Below are positions 3,001 through 19,318 of a DNA stretch of 64,000 nt, piece by piece. The notes beneath the pieces are model-generated. The model searched no databases and was not told where the DNA came from. It saw nothing but the letters and a program-made list of their open reading frames with translations. Made by a program: the position numbers and the translations under genes. Source of the DNA: Tricharina praecox (taxonomy: Eukaryota); assembly GCF_024521635.1 (NCBI RefSeq), contig NW_026250429.1, positions 248,001 to 312,000 on the forward strand, read 5' to 3'. How positions within the stretch are numbered: the first letter of the stretch is position 1; each line of letters starts with the position of its first letter.

Positions 3001-5727
3001 TCATGATATCCGTTTGGCTGGCTGGCTGGCTGGCTGCTGATGACGCCCGACGCCCGGCCCCCGACGCCTCCGCGCTCGCACCTCCTCTGAGTCCTCTCTC
3101 TATCTTTCTCGGAGTCTTCCTTCTCCGCCTTAACGGCCGATCGATAGAAACCGTCCTAGACTCTTAGTAAAATCTGAACATGATCCTCATCCTGAACCTG
3201 AACCTGAACCCGGACCCGCACCTGGACCTGGCTCAAGCGTTAGTTAGCCTTTCCGCTTCCCAGCCCCAGTCACAGCCCCAACCCCAGCCCCAGCCCCAGC
3301 GCAGTTGTTACGGCGCCGCGAGTGATACCACCCAAGTAACTACCACTACCAGACGGCACCCCCCGCCCCCTCCCCCTCCCCATCCCCCTTCCCCGCCTCG
3401 GGACCACCCACTAGATCCTGGCTCGTTGGATCCATCAGGCAGGCAGCTGTACTATAGTACCTACCATACATACCATACTATACATGCGCACGTACTCGTA
3501 CATACAAACAGCTACCTACCTGCCTACCTACCTACCTACTACCAACCCGCAGCAAATTTCCCAGTCGTACCGTATGTACCGACTCAGCTCATGATCCCTC
3601 TCCGGGTATATATACCATGCAGATCGGGGGGTCGGGGAGGGGGGATGCATGCACTCAAGTCAAGTCAAGTCGAAGTCCAGTCATGTCGGAATCCTCCCAG
3701 TGAGTAAGTAAGTGAGTAAGGCTGACGCCCCGGAGGCCGAACCATGGACGGACGGTGGTTCCGTGGGTGGTTTGTACGATACCATGATGGTAGTTATAGC
3801 AGAGGAATTTATGATAGCGGAGGAACTTATACCTACTATACATACCTACACAGACCCCATTCCCTACGCCACACATGCGCACACCACTACCACTTCCAAC
3901 AATACCAGTACATACCAGTACCACCTTCACCTCGGCCTCCACCTCCACCTCCGCCGTCGCCCTCCACACCCACCGTACGGTTGAGTCTCGACTGGCCGCG
4001 CGGGGGCTAAACGCGATCACAGATAAGCCAAGCACGCTTCGTCACTCGGTATCGGCAGCCGAAGCCGCGGGGCCGCCTGTAGGCTGCTGGGAAAGCAGAA
4101 AAGGAGGAGATGATTGATCGACAGGACCCATGGCTCACATCTCGGCCTGTCTCTCCGTTTTGCTCATAGATATATGTACATGTGTAGTCTCAAGAGTACA
4201 TGTTTGTATGTATGAGACAACCTTCTTTCTCGCAATCTGATACAGGAATATGAATCCCAAACGTCGCGACTCGCCACCCCTTGCGACCCCGGGTAGGTCG
4301 ATATAACCAAGTAGGGCCCAATATCTCCATGCAAACAGAAAGAAAGAAAGAAAGAAAGCCAGACGAAAACCCTACATACCAAGTAACTACTACCCCGCTC
4401 CCGGGGATACGTACGCATTCGGGCATATCGGCCGTGTTGGGTAAGCAACACCGGAACGCGGTGCAGGTTGTCACCATGATCACCGTTCCAGGTTGACCGC
4501 AGCTCGCCCGTTTGGTCGTTGTTGGTGGTACATACATATACTGATACGTCTCTTTCGTGTTGTGTGGTCCCGAGTCCCGACAGCAGTTGTATGTAGGTGC
4601 GGGGATACGAAACCTACATACTAGGTATACGGTATACCTTACCGTATGATCGTGCGGGGGTAGAGCGGGATGGGATCCTCCGCGACTACGGTGTGGCGAT
4701 GGCGATGGCAGGTGTCGACTTTTCGGAAACTTCAAACTTGTGATGGTTGTAGATTTATGTTGGTTTGGCAGCCAGAGTAGATTATTACGAGGGATGTCCG
4801 AGTCATTGTGCTGACGGCAGACTGGCAGTTTTTTTGCTTCTGTCTGTACGAACGAAGGGCTCTCAGACTATCTAGGATACCGGTAGTGGTCCGGTGGCGT
4901 GTTATCCTGCTCATATTCCCATAGTAGAAACTATATACCATAGGCGCCATAAGAAAGAAAGGAGGAAGTAGTGAATAGGATTATGTACTCGTGTGGGCCA
5001 GCACTGAGCAAGCGCGCGCCGTTAATAAAGAAAGGATCTTGATTGGCGGCGGTCAGCAATCGCCATACCATAGGGACTCGGGACCGGAACCCCGGGTTCA
5101 TCACCATCAACCACGGTCTTCCCTGTGCATCACTATGTAAGAGTCCGATTCTGGCGGCGTTCATCCTGGTTCGAGTGGTGGGATTCACCCGGTTGGTGGA
5201 AGAAACGGCGGTGAGAATCAATTGCGTTCGTCACGGAAGCCTTGCTAGCAAGTCACCGGGCCTCATTCGGATCGAACCACAATGTCAATGGCAATTCGGC
5301 CCAGCCGCCAAAAAAGGGGCCCCCATATGTAGGAAAGGTCTGACCGGCCGAAGCGGGAACATGGTAATTCTGGTCTAGCAGGGCTTTGCCACGATCTCCC
5401 AGGAAATCGAATGGTGGTTCGATTACTTTGCCGTCGTAAGCGATAGGTGTCGGAGATTCGGAGTACGCGTGTGGCTAACAGAGGACCAATAACCACACGA
5501 ACAAGCATCGAAAGTATCAGACGGCAGCCGTTGAATCCCGATGTGATTCCGAGAACCGGCTTTTGTTCTGTCCAGAGGCACTATGGGCACCGTCGGCCGC
5601 GGCAATCCCCGCACCACCACCGTCGTCACCGCCATCACCATCACCCAAGAATTGTTCCAGCAAAGCCAACCGTCGGTATTCTGTACATACAACCCCCATT
5701 CCTTCTCCCTCTCCTTCCAAATCCACC

Positions 5728-13400: not shown

Positions 13401-14495
13401 TTTGGCGGGCATGCAGATAGGCACATATGAGGTAGATACCTGCAGTTGAATGTTTGTGGAGAGGAGGGGGATTTCCAACGAAGACTCAAGAGCAATTCCA
13501 CTTTGAGGCTATTTACGCGTAGACTGTAGGCTGAACTTCGAACTTTGAACTTTGAAGACGTCAGTTACTAGTCCCCACGGGCCATGGCCAACTATCTAAC
13601 CGGATGGGGCGGTGGTCGAGTATTCAGAGTATCTGGAGTATATAGAGTACGGTATGTACGGTATGTAGACTCGAGAGTGGGATGGCGACTCGGCGAGATG
13701 CGCCTGCGAACTGACTAGGTGCTGAAGACTTGCAGACTTGCAGGAATCACGGGCGTGGAGACACCTCCGTAACTCCGTTTCGACGATCAGCTACCTAGCT
13801 CCCTGACGACACAGTAGTTAACTATCTCGGAATTCCCAAGGTAGCGGAGAATTTGAGCGAAGCTTATGGAGCACGAATAGGAGTTAGTAGTTGCTGGGAA
13901 CTGCTATCTGTACCATCTTCCTGCTGCTGTAGCTGTAGAAAGAGAACACTGCTGAGGTTAGAGCTCGTCGGACAAGCCACAGCATGTCGGGTGAGCCACA
14001 GGTGTTGAAGCGGAGTAACTAGATATAGTTTAGTGTCGACTCTAGTTTTGACTCGAAGCTCGAAGCGGTAGCGCGGGGCCATGTCGCGTTGGTAGCCCGT
14101 ACAGGGAAACAGTCAACATGCAACCGCAGCGATGCTGCACTTCAGCAACCAACATCCAGTTGCACATCACATCGAATTGCCAACTGCTCCCCGTTCACCC
14201 CCAGCAGCGCAGCTCACAAATACCAACAGATCCCAGAAAGTGGTCCTACAAAAGAAGGAAAAGAAAAACATCGGACCGCATCCAATTCCCTTCCAACAGC
14301 TACTCCCGAGTTCTGCACTCTCGTTACCGGCCCTGCAGCTCGACTGCAGCTCCCCGCAATCAACCAACCCACTCAGAGTCCACAGAAGCCATCGGAGGAC
14401 TCTCCGGTACATACATAAGTCTACTGAGAACTTGCGCACACAGCAGCACCAGTCGTCCCCCTCTCCCCCTCCCCCACCTTCTATATCGAAACCGG

Positions 14496-16682
14496 ATGCA
14501 GTCTACTCAAGACGTCGAAGCCTGGAAGTTCCCAGCTATCAAGACCATTGTGAGCGTTGCCACAACTCCAAAGGTTTGTAAACCTGCCGGCAACCTCCTT
14601 CTGTTGTCTGGCACACACCTACGCGTGTTATCTTCTCCCCTCTCCACGAACATGCAGCTGACCGTTAATCCAGACATTCAAAGCCACCCAGACGCAGGAG
14701 GAAAGTGTGTATCCTCAACCGCAGCCTTGCGTTGCCCCCTCCCACTTCCCGGACGCATGCAAATTCAACATCTGCATCGACCGATTGCCCGCTCCCCCGC
14801 CCCCTCGAACGTCGCTTTCGTTCTTTCAATGCTCATTAGTGGTCCTCTGTCTACACAGGAATCTACTATGGCGTATACTTCTATCCCTACACCAGACCAG
14901 GGGACGATCCCGTATTCGCGGTCGTCGGCGGCACAGAGGTATCCTTCCCCCCTCCATCTTTCTATTCATCACATTTTCTCTATTCAGGTACTCATTGAGC
15001 GGTCAAGTCCCGATGTTTCTGACATTTGCATTTCGCTGTCACGTAGGTGTTGATCATTCGCCCGAATGATATGAACGGCTTCGAGATAATAATGGCTTTT
15101 CAAGACGATGTGGTAGCTACACCTGGCCGAGTACTTGAATTCACAAACTAGAATCGCTTTACTAACCCCGGGTGATTTTGATATGTACCAGAGCAACCTA
15201 CTACACCCCCACCCCCTGTCGGCTGAGGGCTCCCTGCTGAGCTAATGTTAGGGATTCGGCGGCGGCGGTGGACTCAGTGCTGGGTGCTGGACTGTAGACA
15301 AGCATACGGGTGCCCCATTATTGGCCGTTGGCGGCTCGGGATCCGTCGTCAAGATTCTCGATATTTGGCAGGGTGAATGTGTCCAGGTGAGTCCGCATTC
15401 GGGCTGTTTTTGGTGGAGTTTGGTGTGACAATAGATACTGATCTGGGTTTGAACAGACATTGACCGGACACGGTGAGGTTAGTTGGTGTACCAAAGTGGT
15501 GTATACGGCGAGATGCTGAATCTCGCTGCAGGAACTTATGGACCTCGTGACGTCCCCTATTGACCAAAGCATCATCGTTACCACCGGTGCTGACACGACC
15601 ATCAGATTTTGGTCGTTGGATCCGGCGCATCAGAAGCAGCCATGCTCCATAATATGTGCCGGCGAAGACCATCGGGAAACGGTCCTCACGATAGTCAGTA
15701 CCGAGTGTCCGTGGTGGGAGGCATGAGGTCAGAGGCACTCGACTGACTGCTGGGAAAAGGCGTTCCACCACACAGGTCGTTACCTTCTTTCCGGAGGCAT
15801 GGATCACTCTGTAAATCTGGTAGGCCGCTCGAGATCTGCCACTACATGATATCGATCCAGCCTCCGCTAACCTTTCACCCAGTGGGTAATACCGGAGGAT
15901 GCAGGTGAGATGGCCGGGACCGACAAGCCCAAGCGGATAATGTACCCGCACTTCTCGACTGCCATGATCCACACCAACTACGTCGACTGGTATGCACTTC
16001 CCCCTGCCACACATCCCGTTCCGTCAACAGGGTTGGAGCGATCACCCCACACTGCACACACGTCCCTCTAACCTCCGGTGGCTGCAGTGTCGCGTTCCAC
16101 GGCGACTACATCCTCTCTCGCGCCGCTGACGAGAACATCATCGTCCTCTGGGCGATCCAAAACTTCAGTTCTAAGGACCCACCTCCCGGGCCCGAGCTCG
16201 CGCCCACCACGCACGAGTACCGCGACACGCGCTCCGCCTTCGGCGGCAGCTTCGAGCGGCTCCTGCAGTTCCAAGCTAACGACACGATCCCGTTCTACAT
16301 GCACTTCAACCTGTTCGCCTCGCCCGGGCACCACCCGCTGCTCGCCATGGGCGCCACCACCGGCCGCGTCTACCTCTGGGACCTCTACATGATCGAGCAG
16401 TACGGCCGCGGCGCCGGCATCGGCGACGACGTTGCCTCCTCTGTCCCCCCCGCTCGTGAATCTAGCTGCAGCGTTACGCCGGGCGCGGGAACTCCTGCCC
16501 CTGGCAAGGTCCATGTCAAGAGAGACGATATCAGTGAGCTCTTTGGAAAGGTCCGCCCGCATGCTACCCTTGAGTTTAAGCAGGCAAAGGGCGGCGTTAG
16601 ACACATTGCTTTCTCGAACGATGGGAGGTACATGGTGGCCGTGGGACATATGAGCCAGATCAATATTTGTAAGAGGTGGTAG
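14496..16682 (+). CDS. EED: WD40-repeat Polycomb protein EED/ESC (PRC2 subunit), about 443 aa, 10 exons
   Basis: Exons 14496-14573, 14674-14704, 14859-14938, 15047-15109, 15252-15386, 15457-15477, 15532-15693, 15760-15819, 15883-15989 and 16088-16682 give 1332 nt in frame. Motifs: FYPY..DPVFAVVG, CWTVDKHTGAPLLAVGG, TLTGHGE, IRFWSL, ICAGEDHRETVLTIAFHHTGRYLLSGGMDHSVNLW, YPHFSTAMIHTNYVDCVAFHGDYILSRA, IVLW, PFYMHF. The two 5' exons are less certain. Confidence 0.88.
15110..15251 (+). other. Probable [D3,4] spliceosomal twin intron (stwintron) in EED
   Basis: Inner intron 15113-15191 (GTAGCT..TACTAAC..CAG). Its excision joins GTG (15110-15112) to AGC (15192-15194), making a GTGAGC donor for an outer intron ending at GCTAATGTTAG (15251). 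Confidence 0.65.
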
Positions 16683-17631
16683 CCTAGTAGGGTGTGGCTT
16701 AGGGTGGGGTCGGGAGGTACATTATGCAGTTTGATTCTTCTTGACAATACCAATACAAAAAGTCTCTACTATCTGGTGTAGGGGATAAGAGGTGCATACA
16801 TTCTATATAGGCGTGTGTAGATGAGCCAACACGAGACCCCATAGTTATTAGGATGACAATGAAGCGCTAAAAACATAATCCTATCTATTTAGCAGAGCCC
16901 AATCAAGACAAAACTCGTAACCCCCCGCGAGCAGACAGGCGATACTCGAGTGATATATTGTGACTTCGATCAGATGGAGAAAGTTGTACGTATCGTCCGG
17001 CCTCCTCTGCCTCTTCTATCCCTAGAGGCTAGGTACACGGGCCGAATACAAGTGTAGGTGGGAACATCCGCCACAACCACCACGGCTGCCACCACCTACC
17101 CATCTTGTCCGTTTATGGAGGCGACTCCAGAGCTGAGAGATGTAGGTAGTAGGCATTGTGTGTGTGTTGCATACTAGGCGGGTAGGTTGGAAGCTGTTAT
17201 CGACATCCCCCAACCCCCCATGTTGTACATTTATCGAGGCAACGCAGATGCAGGTAGTAAGCATTGTGTGTGTTATGTTGATGGGTAGTTACAGTGGATT
17301 GTAGGCGGTTCAGTTGTGTTCTGGTTCTGCGGGTTTTGCGGGTTCTGGGGATTGCGGATTCTGCGGTTTCCGGCCCGGCTGGCGGATTTTCGAGTTGGAA
17401 GTTGTTGCAGTGCCAGTGGTGCAGTTTTCTCATGATCTTGGAGCCGGGCACGAAGTTGAAACGTGAGCTGAGCCGTCGAGTTGTTTGACTTTTGAACTGG
17501 GCAGGTTCGCTGAGTCTTGGGTCTGAAGCTGAGTCAATTGCTGGTGTTGGCTCAGTGCAGGTGGTGAAGTTAGAGCAGTTTGCTCACGATCTTTGAGACT
17601 TTGGACCCCGTTGGAACTTGAGTGGTCAAGC

Positions 17632-18307
17632 TGTTTGACTCTGCTCTGGTAGGTTCGCAGACCTAGGATCTCGAGTCTTGAGTCTTGAGTCTTGAGTGAC
17701 GAGTCTGGAATCTGGATGTGGTCAACTGCAGCTGGGTCATTTGGTGCAGTGCAGCGCCGTTTCGGCCTGAAGCTGATTGTCCCAGTTCCAAGTTCCAACA
17801 GTAGTCTGCTGGGATTCTGACCCTTTCGCGCATCGTGGGTCGGACCCGGTGGTATAGTGTCGATGGTATACTAGGTAGGCAGTGTAATCTTCGAAGTCCG
17901 CACCACTAAATACCCACCACCAAACCTAACGCTCCGGTAGTGCAGAGTGTCAAGATTAGACGTCCGGAAGGCTTTTGACTTTGCACTGGGCAGTGGGCAG
18001 GTTCGCTGATCTGGTGTCTCGAGTCTTAAGTCTTGAGTCTTGAGTGACGAGTCTGGATGTGGTTAACTGCAGCTGGCTCATTTGGTGCAGTGCAGCGCCG
18101 TTTCGGCCTGAAGCTGATTGTCCCAGTTCCAAGTTCCAACTGTAGTCTGCTGGGCCTCTGATCCTTTCGCGCATCGTGGGTCGGTGGTGTAGATTCGATG
18201 GTATACTATAGGTAGGCAGTGTAATCTTCGAGGTCCGCGGCGCTAGATACCCACCAAACCTAACGCTCCTGCAGTGCAGAGTGTCAAGATTAGACTTCCG
18301 GAAGGCT
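17632..18307. repeat. Tandem duplication of a ~340-bp unit (2 copies, plus a short partial copy near 17484-17520)
   Basis: Long shared blocks, e.g. CATTTGGTGCAGTGCAGCGCCGTTTCGGCCTGAAGCTGATTGTCCCAGTTCCAAGTTCCAAC at ~17738 and ~18079, and AGTGCAGAGTGTCAAGATTAGAC at ~17939 and ~18273. Confidence 0.9.
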
Positions 18308-19318
18308 CTATGTAGAAGATCCACGATCCGGAAGGTTCCACCTGATGACGCGGACGCGGACCGTGCTCGTCTCACTCTTCAGAAGCCGAAGGATTTGAGT
18401 ATCTCCTGCGTAAGAGTACTCTGCCTTGGACAAGACGAACGTGTATATAGAGGGCCGAGCTGGCCCGACGAGAAGTAGATAATCGGCCGAACATTGTCTG
18501 TCTATCTATCCATTCCTATCTCTATCCTCCATATTCTTGACACAGAGAACGACGCTTGGTCCCGACTCCCGCCCGGAGCACTGTAAAACTGTCTAGAGTG
18601 GACGTAAACCCCGTGGTGTGTGTGCATGCTGGTTGGTGGGATAAGGCAGTCACTGTCTTAAGGCGCAGATGGGTACTGGTTACGACCTAGGTCCCAGGTA
18701 GTGAAGCGGGATTGATTGTGGTTGAAGGTGATCGAGATGTATGATATATGCCGCCAAGGGTTGAGCTGGTGGCTGTATCTGTCGTTGTATCTGTGGTTAT
18801 ATTTGTAGTTGTACTTGTATCTGTGTTCGTAGTTGTAGTTGTATTTGTGGTTATATTTGTGTTCGTGGTTTTGGTTGTGTTGTGTTGTGTGAAGGAGGGA
18901 AAGAAGGGATCGGAGAAGGGGGGGTACATATACAATTGGGGCTGTGACATGGAATCTTCTGGAGTCGTCTATTAGACTTACTTGCTTGCTACATATGCTG
19001 AGAGACCCACGGGTAGGTGGTCCACGTCGTCTTCTAGGGCAAAGAGCTCACTGGAAGCCGCCGGTCTAACAGCGGCTTCCAGGCTGCGATGTGGTGGATA
19101 GGTCTCCGCCTGCCCTACGACTGCCCAGTTTGAGTGACATATTGTTGTCTCGGACCCACTTTGCAGATAATGAGTCACACAATCAATTAGTTGTTAATTA
19201 GCGAGTGACATCTCATGTTCCAACCTGTAATTTTGATGGTACAAGAGAAAAACCGCAAATCCCAGAAAGCGACAAACCAAGTACTCCATGCCCCAACAAT
19301 GAGTGACGAACCAGTGAC

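Follow-up and report, generated by a model that had tools for sequence, protein, structure and literature searches.

A probable [D3,4] stwintron at a conserved position in the Polycomb EED gene of Tricharina praecox

Stwintrons with an interrupted donor

The clearest natural evidence for intron definition in the pairing of fungal splice sites comes from stwintrons, which also serve as models for the origin, shift and loss of introns. Experimentally, a stwintron is defined by a splicing intermediate from which the internal intron alone is missing, and RT-PCR with cDNA sequencing has been applied to all the demonstrated cases. The authors who defined stwintrons regard an architecture shared at one gene position across orthologues as comparative verification.

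Donor splits have been demonstrated for the [D1,2], [D2,3], [D4,5], [D5,6], [D6,7] and [D7,8] types, and an acceptor split for the [A2,3] type (PMC5639578, PMC7138796, PMC9024468, PMC12403724). None of the demonstrated types described in the available portions of these reports has its donor split after nucleotide 3, and a [D3,4] stwintron would fill that gap. In the bioDA [D2,3] stwintron of Sordariomycetes and the [D4,5] stwintron of the Lipomyces lipofer reticulon-like gene, one U2 intron interrupts the six-nucleotide donor of another, external U2 intron. Excision of the inner intron creates a canonical donor, removal takes two consecutive standard reactions, and the elements are position-conserved across related species (PMC5639578, PMC7138796).

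We describe here an intervening sequence in the EED gene of Tricharina praecox, at positions 15110-15251, which is probably a position-conserved, donor-disrupted stwintron of the same general design. In contrast with the bioDA and L. lipofer elements, its outer donor would be split after the third nucleotide. The intermediates of those two stwintrons have been sequenced, whereas the T. praecox case is known from its architecture, its orthologues and its mature junction.

The EED gene and its mature junction

The gene lies in the window, i.e. the whole 64-kb stretch of DNA that was analysed. Judging from its sequence, it is the T. praecox orthologue of EED, the EED/ESC subunit of PRC2, in agreement with the preliminary description, which had called it Polycomb EED. 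The best solved relative of its product is the Polycomb protein EED (5bjs_A, E 2e-81, residues 6-353). The best 25 solved-structure matches are all EED entries, with E values of ~2e-33 from the second match on, and 'polycomb protein EED' is the JGI name of two relatives. The exon chain deduced from contig joints translates exactly into P0001 (443 aa, Tricharina praecox). The gene features needed here are the following.

14496..16682, + strand: EED (PRC2 WD40 subunit) coding region, 10 exons and 9 introns, from contig joints
15047..15109, + strand: exon 4, ending ...AFQDD; joints 14936/15045 (GT..AG at 14939-15046) and 15109/15252 in X1 and X2, and translation
15252..15386, + strand: exon 5, starting GFGGGGGLSAG...; contig joints and translation

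Other introns of the gene measure 100, 154, 108 and 98 nt. Downstream of the EED gene there are short tandem-repeat arrays only, which are unrelated to the stwintron finding.

The RNA evidence consists of assembled contigs, which are prone to losing rare forms and whose coverage does not include positions 15124-15225. They come from two public runs of two studies (X1 and X2), labelled 'RNA?', which we treated as transcript-derived on the sole ground that their contigs are devoid of all nine introns. Two soil metatranscriptome runs (X3 and X4) yielded no contig matching the locus. One contig each in X1 and X2 joins 15109 to 15252, skipping 142 nt bounded by GT..AG, with 65 letters on the shorter side, and this is the only joint at this intervening sequence in the contigs of both runs. 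It corresponds to the mature mRNA predicted for a stwintron in the preliminary description, and not to the DDV/GF form that had been named there as its refutation. Both joins are in frame, the 15109/15252 join giving DD/GF and the 15112/15252 join giving DDV/GF; translation thus bears out that a single 15113-15251 splice would add one Val.

The 15109/15252 joint has no intervening letters, which rules out a micro-exon model with two introns flanking a short exon. It also rules out the single 15113-15251 splice (DDV/GF) as the assembled T. praecox form, and DDV/GF may be a minor isoform in this species. Since the mature joint is at 15109, the exon ends three bases upstream of the better of two overlapping donors.

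Contigs of both X1 and X2 also join across a frameshifting alternative 59-nt intron (15547-15605, donor CTC/GTGACG). Unproductive splicing therefore occurs in the EED gene. This intron is located inside a WD40-coding exon, and four versions of the gene maintain its splice signals at synonymous positions.

Architecture and conservation of the intervening sequence

All the motifs named in the preliminary description were recovered at the positions given for them, and the intervening sequence is organized as follows.

15110..15251, + strand: whole intervening sequence, 142 nt; absent from mature mRNA (15109/15252 joint)
15110..15112, + strand: GTG, first three nucleotides of the putative split outer donor; not in mature mRNA; GTR in 4/4 orthologous versions (GTG, GTG, GTG, GTA)
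15113..15191, + strand: proposed inner U2 intron, 79 nt; donor, branch site and acceptor all present
15113..15118, + strand: inner donor GTAGCT, with G at -1, weak (C at +5); GURWGY 4/6; orthologues GTACCT, GTACCT and GTACGT, the GTA being invariant
15160..15166, + strand: inner branch-site candidate TACTAAC; A 15165 is 26 nt before G 15191; 22-nt spacer to CAG
15177..15182, + strand: second inner branch-site candidate TTTGAT; 8-nt spacer to CAG; kept in L006 and L007, not in L010
15189..15191, + strand: inner acceptor CAG, the first AG downstream of TACTAAC
15192..15194, + strand: AGC, last three nucleotides of the putative split outer donor; AGY in 4/4 versions (AGC, AGC, AGT, AGC); fused donor GTGAGC
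15237..15246, + strand: outer branch-site region, GCTGAG overlapping GCTAAT; candidates A 15240 and A 15245, respectively 11 and 6 nt before the intron end
15249..15251, + strand: outer acceptor TAG, used in mature mRNA

The inner unit of 79 nt exceeds the minimum of ~42 nt and has its own branch-site element and acceptor. By intron definition, the inner donor GTAGCT (15113) would pair with the nearest 3' end, CAG at 15191, with TACTAAC or TTTGAT as the branch site. Removal of these 79 nt would join GTG (15110-15112) to AGC (15192-15194) and thereby create the canonical donor GTGAGC. In the second step, the outer intron of 63 nt, which starts with this fused donor, would be excised to TAG 15251, the acceptor used in the mRNA, so that ...AFQDD is joined to GFGG.... 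It is from this arrangement that we infer both a 15112/15192 intermediate and the succession of the two reactions.

Two further statements of the preliminary description concern the part between the two 3' ends. It had reported a single GT in 15192-15251, at 15218 (GTCGGC, 15218-15223). There are in fact two, at 15218 and 15247, but the latter is irrelevant, being 5 nt from the end. The in-frame TAA that it placed in the once-spliced form is present at 15243-15245, that form translating into ...AFQDDVSNLLHPHPLSAEGSLLS followed by the stop, although such a stop is trivial for an intron.

Other ways to divide the sequence were considered and rejected. A [D1,2] route needs GGT at the start, and the sequence starts with GTG. 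A recursive site needs GT after CAG 15191, where the next bases are AG. An inner acceptor at AG 15193 would give GTGCAA, and inner donors at 15131, 15172 or 15185 would leave the outer donor unrepaired.

A scan of metagenomes provided 20 loci, 11 of which (L001-L011) are EED orthologues by tblastn. The gene models of these orthologues include five of the nine junctions per locus (introns 3, 4, 7, 8 and 9); the other four (introns 1, 2, 5 and 6) are not included, as tblastn hits cross them or the exons are too short. An intervening sequence is found at the EED position in six of the 11 orthologous loci (L006-L011), which represent three further distinct versions. There are thus four distinct intron-bearing versions, namely those of the window, of L006, of the identical L007, L008 and L009, and of the identical L010 and L011. 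The five Tuber-like loci (L001-L005) have no intron at this position. From these sequences, the element appears to be single-copy and position-conserved in the recovered Tricharina/Trichophaea-like loci and to be absent from Tuber-like EED loci.

All four versions read GAT/GTR/GTA…DYTRAY…CAG/AGY…YAG, with the inner unit at the equivalent place in L006 (2358-2453), L007 (4254-4358) and L010 (4226-4288). The split GTR/AGY donor, the internal branch site and the CAG are hence kept in all three further versions, as an alignment of orthologues proposed in the preliminary description was meant to reveal. The inner branch-site column reads ACTAAC, GCTGAC, GCTGAT and ACTGAC in the four versions, every substitution remaining within DYTRAY, and the longest stretch without variation inside the intron alignment is CAGAG. 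The outer branch-site column reads ACTGAG, GCTCAG and GCTGAT in the orthologues, L010 having the canonical GCTGAT with an 8-nt spacer.

The introns of T. praecox, L006 and L007 are still 64-78% identical to one another, and therefore these three are not independent witnesses. In contrast, identity between T. praecox and the Trichophaea-like L010 is 0.52-0.57, against 0.47-0.52 for shuffles, i.e. near-random and saturated, and both retain the full architecture. The RNA evidence for the mature junction covers T. praecox alone, the orthologue versions being genomic sequence. At the protein level, a Val follows DD in one of the 21 junction-covering rows, that of the Trichophaea hybrida model; the Pyronema omphalodes protein reads DDGFGGKGL, with no extra residue. 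In the public T. hybrida EED model, this Val is probably an artefact of the gene caller, which would have joined the canonical inner donor to the distal acceptor.

Donor strength was scored as the fit to GURWGY for 21 entries, i.e. the nine RNA-confirmed EED donors and three candidates in each of the four versions. The one-step donor GTRGTA (GAT/GTGGTA in T. praecox) scores 3/6, the lowest value among the 21, and the minimum for the RNA-confirmed donors of the gene (n=9) is 4/6. This low score is indirect evidence that the outer donor may be unusable until the inner intron has gone. The T. praecox inner donor GTAGCT scores 4/6, against 6/6 for the fused donor GTGAGC. The four fused donors (GTGAGC, GTGAGC, GTGAGT and GTAAGC) all score 6/6 and all figure on a published list of 24 donors. 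GTACCT, the inner donor of L006 and L007, scores 4/6, and GTACGT of L010 is a member of the published list.

The inner donor had been described as weak owing to its C at +5. This holds for T. praecox and likewise for L006 and L007, whereas the Trichophaea-like orthologue has the canonical GTACGT. In the three versions whose inner donor is devoid of G at +5, the stwintron hypothesis thus swaps one weak donor for another. In addition, T. praecox contigs join poor donors elsewhere, GAG/GTATCC in intron 3 and CTC/GTGACG in the alternative 59-nt intron, the latter having neither G at -1 nor G at +5. As the EED gene uses such donors, strength alone does not decide against one-step use of GTGGTA.

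To estimate the probability of a fortuitous [D3,4] architecture, we left the first 9 nt and the last 25 nt unchanged and made 20000 dinucleotide shuffles of the sequence between them. A shuffle was counted when it had DYTRAY, a spacer of 4-25 nt, HAG, a fused donor belonging to a set of 24 canonical hexamers, and two units of at least 42 nt each. The architecture arose in 334/20000 shuffles of the T. praecox sequence and 408/20000 of L010, and the chance per sequence is 1.7–4.1%. L010 represents the unbiased replicate, since the T. praecox sequence was picked for its pattern. Among 21 control introns of four genes, of which only seven are at least 84 nt long and able to hold two units, none has a [D1,2] to [D5,6] architecture.

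The published motif model A, once adapted to [D3,4], accepts L010/L011 as the only match in 268,530 nt on both strands (GTACGT, ACTGAC, 15-nt spacer, CAG, fused GTAAGC, GCTGAT, 8-nt spacer, CAG). The T. praecox version departs from the published model in three respects, namely the inner donor, the inner spacer and the outer spacer. Its inner donor is not of the required GTNNGN type. The spacer between TACTAAC and CAG is 22 nt, compared with 4-20 in the model, and that of TTTGAT, 8 nt, fits. The outer branch site is not ideal, as GCTAAT is 2 nt before TAG, compared with a minimum of 4, and the alternative GCTGAG ends in G.

Alternative readings and comparison with known systems

An ordinary single intron of 142 nt is the foremost alternative, and we consider it rather unlikely. 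GAT/GTGGTA would be used directly, with a branch near 15240-15245 and TAG 15251 as the acceptor, and the internal TACTAAC..CAG/AGC would be ignored, being there by chance or descent. This reading predicts the mature 15109/15252 junction equally well, and a length of 142 nt is not unusual beside those of the other introns. It is also favoured by the RNA-confirmed use of GTATCC and GTGACG in the same gene, and there is no 15112/15192 joint among contigs whose coverage omits 15124-15225. Moreover, stwintrons are rare, and those reported by the authors who defined them are mostly of [D1,2] types (PMC12403724). However, the lowest-scoring donor of the 21 would have to persist in four versions, and the spliceosome would have to pass over a perfect TACTAAC together with the first AG after it. 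A single intron also leaves unexplained why the exon does not extend to the better donor three bases downstream, and why the branch site, CAG and AGY persist amid saturated intron sequence. The low chance of the architecture per sequence and the lack of a background match to the strict model in the 268,530 nt further argue against it.

The internal 3' splice site might instead be an alternative, unproductive acceptor. Splicing from the 15110 donor to 15192 would give ...DD/SNLLHPHPLSAEGSLLS and a stop, lowering EED, and the productive mRNA would be made in one step. The conserved internal branch site and CAG would be accounted for, and the 15547-15605 splice sets a precedent for frameshifting in the same gene and in both runs. 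Nevertheless, this is very improbable. It does not predict that AGY follows CAG in all four versions and always completes a 6/6 donor; three bases after CAG complete a listed donor by chance in 6/64 cases with GTG and 14/64 with GTA. In addition, the productive form still needs a 3/6 donor, and no 15109/15192 joint was found among the X1 and X2 contigs, which lose rare forms.

Equally slight is the probability that both routes operate, the sequence being removed sometimes in two steps and sometimes in one, with pairing of the inner donor and the distal acceptor generating a minor isoform with the additional Val. The [D6,7] element of Lipomyces starkeyi, which this scheme resembles, is spliced either way (PMC7138796). 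The product with the Val is in frame and is found in the public T. hybrida protein model, but 15109/15252 is the sole joint in both runs.

The two-step excision of a [D3,4] stwintron is thus the reading we favour. Selection for this route need not be strong, because the distal mis-splice only adds one Val. Being in frame, this mis-splice offers a natural route to a three-nucleotide shift of an intron boundary and to a one-codon protein polymorphism. The element keeps its position in lineages whose introns have otherwise diverged to saturation, and its host belongs to the early-diverging class Pezizomycetes.

The link to Polycomb regulation, including the earlier suggestion that a stalled second step tunes EED levels via nonsense-mediated decay, is speculative. 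It seems distinctly improbable that splicing sets the dosage of EED in these cup fungi, with two conserved devices, the [D3,4] stwintron with its stop-bearing intermediate and the frameshifting 59-nt intron, diverting some transcripts to nonsense-mediated decay. Should this be the case, PRC2 would be under post-transcriptional dosage control, and the EED element would also be the first stwintron with an in-frame distal mis-splice, allowing an isoform with the additional Val.

In the recursive (zero-length-exon) splicing of long animal introns, removal is also stepwise and a splice site is regenerated at the junction. The donor is rebuilt there from the end of the upstream exon and a GT after the internal AG. 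In contrast, the base after CAG 15191 is an A in the EED element, and the donor would be rebuilt from the intronic GTG and AGC.

The EED element would resemble the [D1,2] stwintrons known from Hypoxylaceae and Xylariaceae, among them the propagating 'sister' stwintrons, in having nested U2 introns and a split donor (PMC9024468, PMC12403724). A known mis-splice of [D1,2] stwintrons pairs the inner donor with the outer acceptor (PMC9024468, PMC12403724). It leaves one G and shifts the frame, whereas the corresponding EED mis-splice would leave GTG and add only a Val. Unlike 'sister' [D1,2] stwintrons, which have near-terminal inverted repeats and copies of similar sequence elsewhere among the genes, the EED element is devoid of terminal inverted repeats (no pairs in 15100-15260), and the 64-kb window contains no second copy of its first 28 nt with up to three mismatches. 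It thus appears to occur only once, at a conserved position, and not to propagate.

Finally, the L. starkeyi [D6,7] element, a stwintron sensu lato, also has two close donors, and a switch from one to the other alters the mRNA by a multiple of three nucleotides; both one-step and two-step excision are possible (PMC7138796). In that element, the donors abut, each is complete, and the external donor is uninterrupted. In contrast, the outer donor of the EED element would exist only after excision of the inner intron.

Gene identity and the mature junction

The C-terminal exon matched a 100% identical T. praecox protein of 443 aa (P0001), whose best solved relative is the Polycomb protein EED (5bjs_A, E 2e-81), in agreement with the preliminary description. 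A run search identified two public sequencing runs from two studies, X1 and X2, in which the sampled words were present at fractions of 0.49 and 0.44. Nine GT..AG segments are missing from their contigs between 13900 and 16950, and the exon chain derived from the contig joints corresponds exactly to P0001; we therefore treated these contigs as transcript-derived.

One contig per run joins 15109 to 15252, skipping 142 nt, with 65 letters on the shorter side; assembled contigs drop rare forms, none spans the interior of the intervening sequence, and this joint fits excision in one step or two. The mature DDV/GF joint, which the preliminary description had set against its own reading, did not occur as an assembled form. 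Direct joining of 15109 to 15252 in both runs excludes it as the assembled T. praecox form, and also excludes a micro-exon within 15110-15251. The relevant features are as follows.

15109, + strand: end of exon 4 (...AFQDD)
15110-15251, + strand: intervening sequence of 142 nt, starting GTG GTAGCT
15160-15166, + strand: candidate inner branch site TACTAAC
15189-15191, + strand: proposed inner acceptor CAG, the first AG 3' of TACTAAC
15192-15194, + strand: AGC, directly after CAG
15241-15251, + strand: 3' end GCTAAT GT TAG
15252, + strand: start of exon 5 (GFGG)

Excising 15113-15191 (79 nt) leaves a 63-nt remainder that begins with GTGAGC, and this once-spliced form would carry an in-frame TAA (15243-15245). 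The exon ends, TACTAAC, CAG, AGC, GCTAAT, TAG and TAA were thus all present as initially described; the claim of only one GT in the downstream half was incorrect, as there are two, at 15218 and 15247.

The spliced contigs also confirm two very short EED exons on the + strand, 14674-14704 (31 nt) and 15457-15477 (21 nt). At the latter, automatic contig placement gave a TT..AG joint with 14 letters between, but direct reading of the sequence shows an intron with canonical ends, GTTAGT..CAG, at 15478-15531. A lone T>C at 14360 in the 5' untranslated region, found in X1 only, suggests that X1 comes from another strain or allele than the assembly.

Orthologous loci

When metagenomes were scanned with a five-protein EED alignment, 20 loci were obtained, of which 11 are EED orthologues (L001-L011). 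The intron at 15110-15251 is absent from the Tuber-like loci L001-L005 (YFLDDLKFNESLC). In these, a single uninterrupted tblastn hit of 1284-1302 nt matches residues 33-442; hence, they have no detectable intron across these residues, versus nine in the T. praecox gene.

An intron is found at the orthologous position in L006 (146 nt), L007 (154 nt) and L010 (114 nt). L008 and L009 are identical to L007 in the intron stretch, and the L011 intervening sequence is identical to that of L010, whose last exon is 95% identical to that of Trichophaea hybrida. The four versions (window, L006, L007 and L010) have a common plan: GAT, GTR, GTA..., an inner DYTRAY, CAG followed by AGY, a second branch-like element, and YAG followed by GGRTTCGG. 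The inner DYTRAY elements are ACTAAC, GCTGAC, GCTGAT and ACTGAC, and the fused donors, GTGAGC, GTGAGC, GTGAGT and GTAAGC, each match GURWGY at 6/6 positions. Within the alignment interior, no invariant run is longer than CAGAG. The comparison suggested in the preliminary description thus found the split donor, internal branch site and CAG in all three further versions.

We aligned 22 orthologous proteins, 21 of which have residues at the junction. Among these 21, a Val immediately follows DD only in the T. hybrida model P0002 (DDVGFGGEGL); T. praecox and Pyronema omphalodes (DDGFGGKGL) are without it. In the near-identical locus L010 (4223-4336), the counterpart of this Val is a GTA codon lying before GTACGT, the canonical inner donor. 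The gene caller probably paired that donor with the distal acceptor; most likely, the Val reflects an artefact of the gene model or else a minor isoform.

An alternative 59-nt intron was observed at 15547-15605 on the + strand (CTC/GTGACG...GCTGAC...CAG), inside the exon for a WD40 blade (VTSPIDQSIIVTTGADTT). The X1 contig and one X2 contig lack this intron, and another X2 contig retains it; its removal causes a frameshift, with a stop 81 nt upstream of the last exon junction. All four intron-bearing versions, but not L001-L005, preserve its signals GTGACG, GCTGAY and AG at synonymous sites, and the codons used there are not the common ones in the EED gene (GTG 5/31, ACG 10/33, GCT 9/35, AGA 5/19). 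It may represent conserved unproductive splicing of EED. Downstream of the gene lie short tandem arrays with periods of 6-36 (17323-17370, 17669-17706, 18016-18054 and 18769-18888), and minus-strand stop-free frames in 17200-18400 contain repeated peptide motifs.

Excision in one step or two

T. praecox introns share 64-78% identity with the L006 and L007 introns, so these three are not independent. Their identity to the L010 introns is 0.52-0.57, where shuffled sequences give 0.47-0.52, indicating saturation. With 9 nt at the 5' end and 25 nt at the 3' end held constant and the interior shuffled 20000 times per version, a D3,4 architecture arose 334 (T. praecox), 705 (L006), 824 (L007) and 408 (L010) times. 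Because the T. praecox sequence was picked for its pattern, L010 is the unbiased replicate (about 2%), and its architecture sits at the exact orthologous site. Model A of PMC9024468 (Methods 2.1), a published motif model that we adapted to [D3,4] and ran on both strands of 268,530 nt, matched L010 and L011 alone (4223-4336); this strict model misses the T. praecox version, L006 and L007 because their inner donors have no G at +5. None of 21 control introns of the four genes, only 7 of them long enough for two units, has a D1,2 to D5,6 architecture.

Two-step excision of 15110-15251 is in our view the most likely route, and we hold it with reasonable confidence. The inner 79-nt intron would leave first, under intron definition, creating GTGAGC, and the 63-nt outer intron would leave second. 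The architecture, its conservation and the mature junction are established, while the intermediate and the sequence of the two reactions are inferred. One-step use of GTGGTA is unlikely, albeit a serious alternative. Weak donors do function in T. praecox EED, as GAG/GTATCC of intron 3 and CTC/GTGACG of the 59-nt intron, the latter without G at -1 and +5, are both joined in contigs, and this counts against the stwintron reading. The one-step donor GAT/GTGGTA (GTAGTA in L010) nevertheless matches GURWGY at 3/6 positions, the lowest of 21 donor entries in this small intron sample (nine RNA-confirmed donors and three candidates per version), compared with 4/6 for the inner donors and 5/6 for that of L010. 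Its use would mean cutting three bases upstream of a better donor and passing over a perfect TACTAAC-CAG 3' end. The T. praecox outer branch site is non-ideal, GCTAAT being 2 nt from TAG and GCTGAG having a terminal G; both models require this outer 3' end. Conservation of the internal acceptor as a poison site is very improbable, and we give equally little credence to mixed one- and two-step routes. The tuning of EED levels through nonsense-mediated decay, as proposed in the preliminary description, is conceivable, but a stop can be expected in almost any part of an intron that stays in the transcript.

The donor of intron 3 (the intron spanning 14939-15046, + strand), confirmed by contig joints, has no G at +5. 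This atypical donor (GTATYY) is conserved, with GAG/GTATTT in L006 (2186-2291), GTATCT in L007 (4079-4187) and GTATTT in L010 (4079-4159).

Comparison with known stwintrons

According to passages of five papers (PMC5639578, PMC9024468, PMC7138796, PMC12403724, PMC6616335), the demonstrated types of spliceosomal twin introns are [D1,2], [D2,3], [D4,5], [D5,6], [D6,7], [D7,8] and [A2,3], and their authors state that types besides [D1,2] are rarely met. Those passages do not mention [D3,4], a type label that cannot be searched for exactly. The T. praecox element lacks terminal inverted repeats and occurs only once in the 64-kb window, which places it outside the propagating kind known from Hypoxylaceae.
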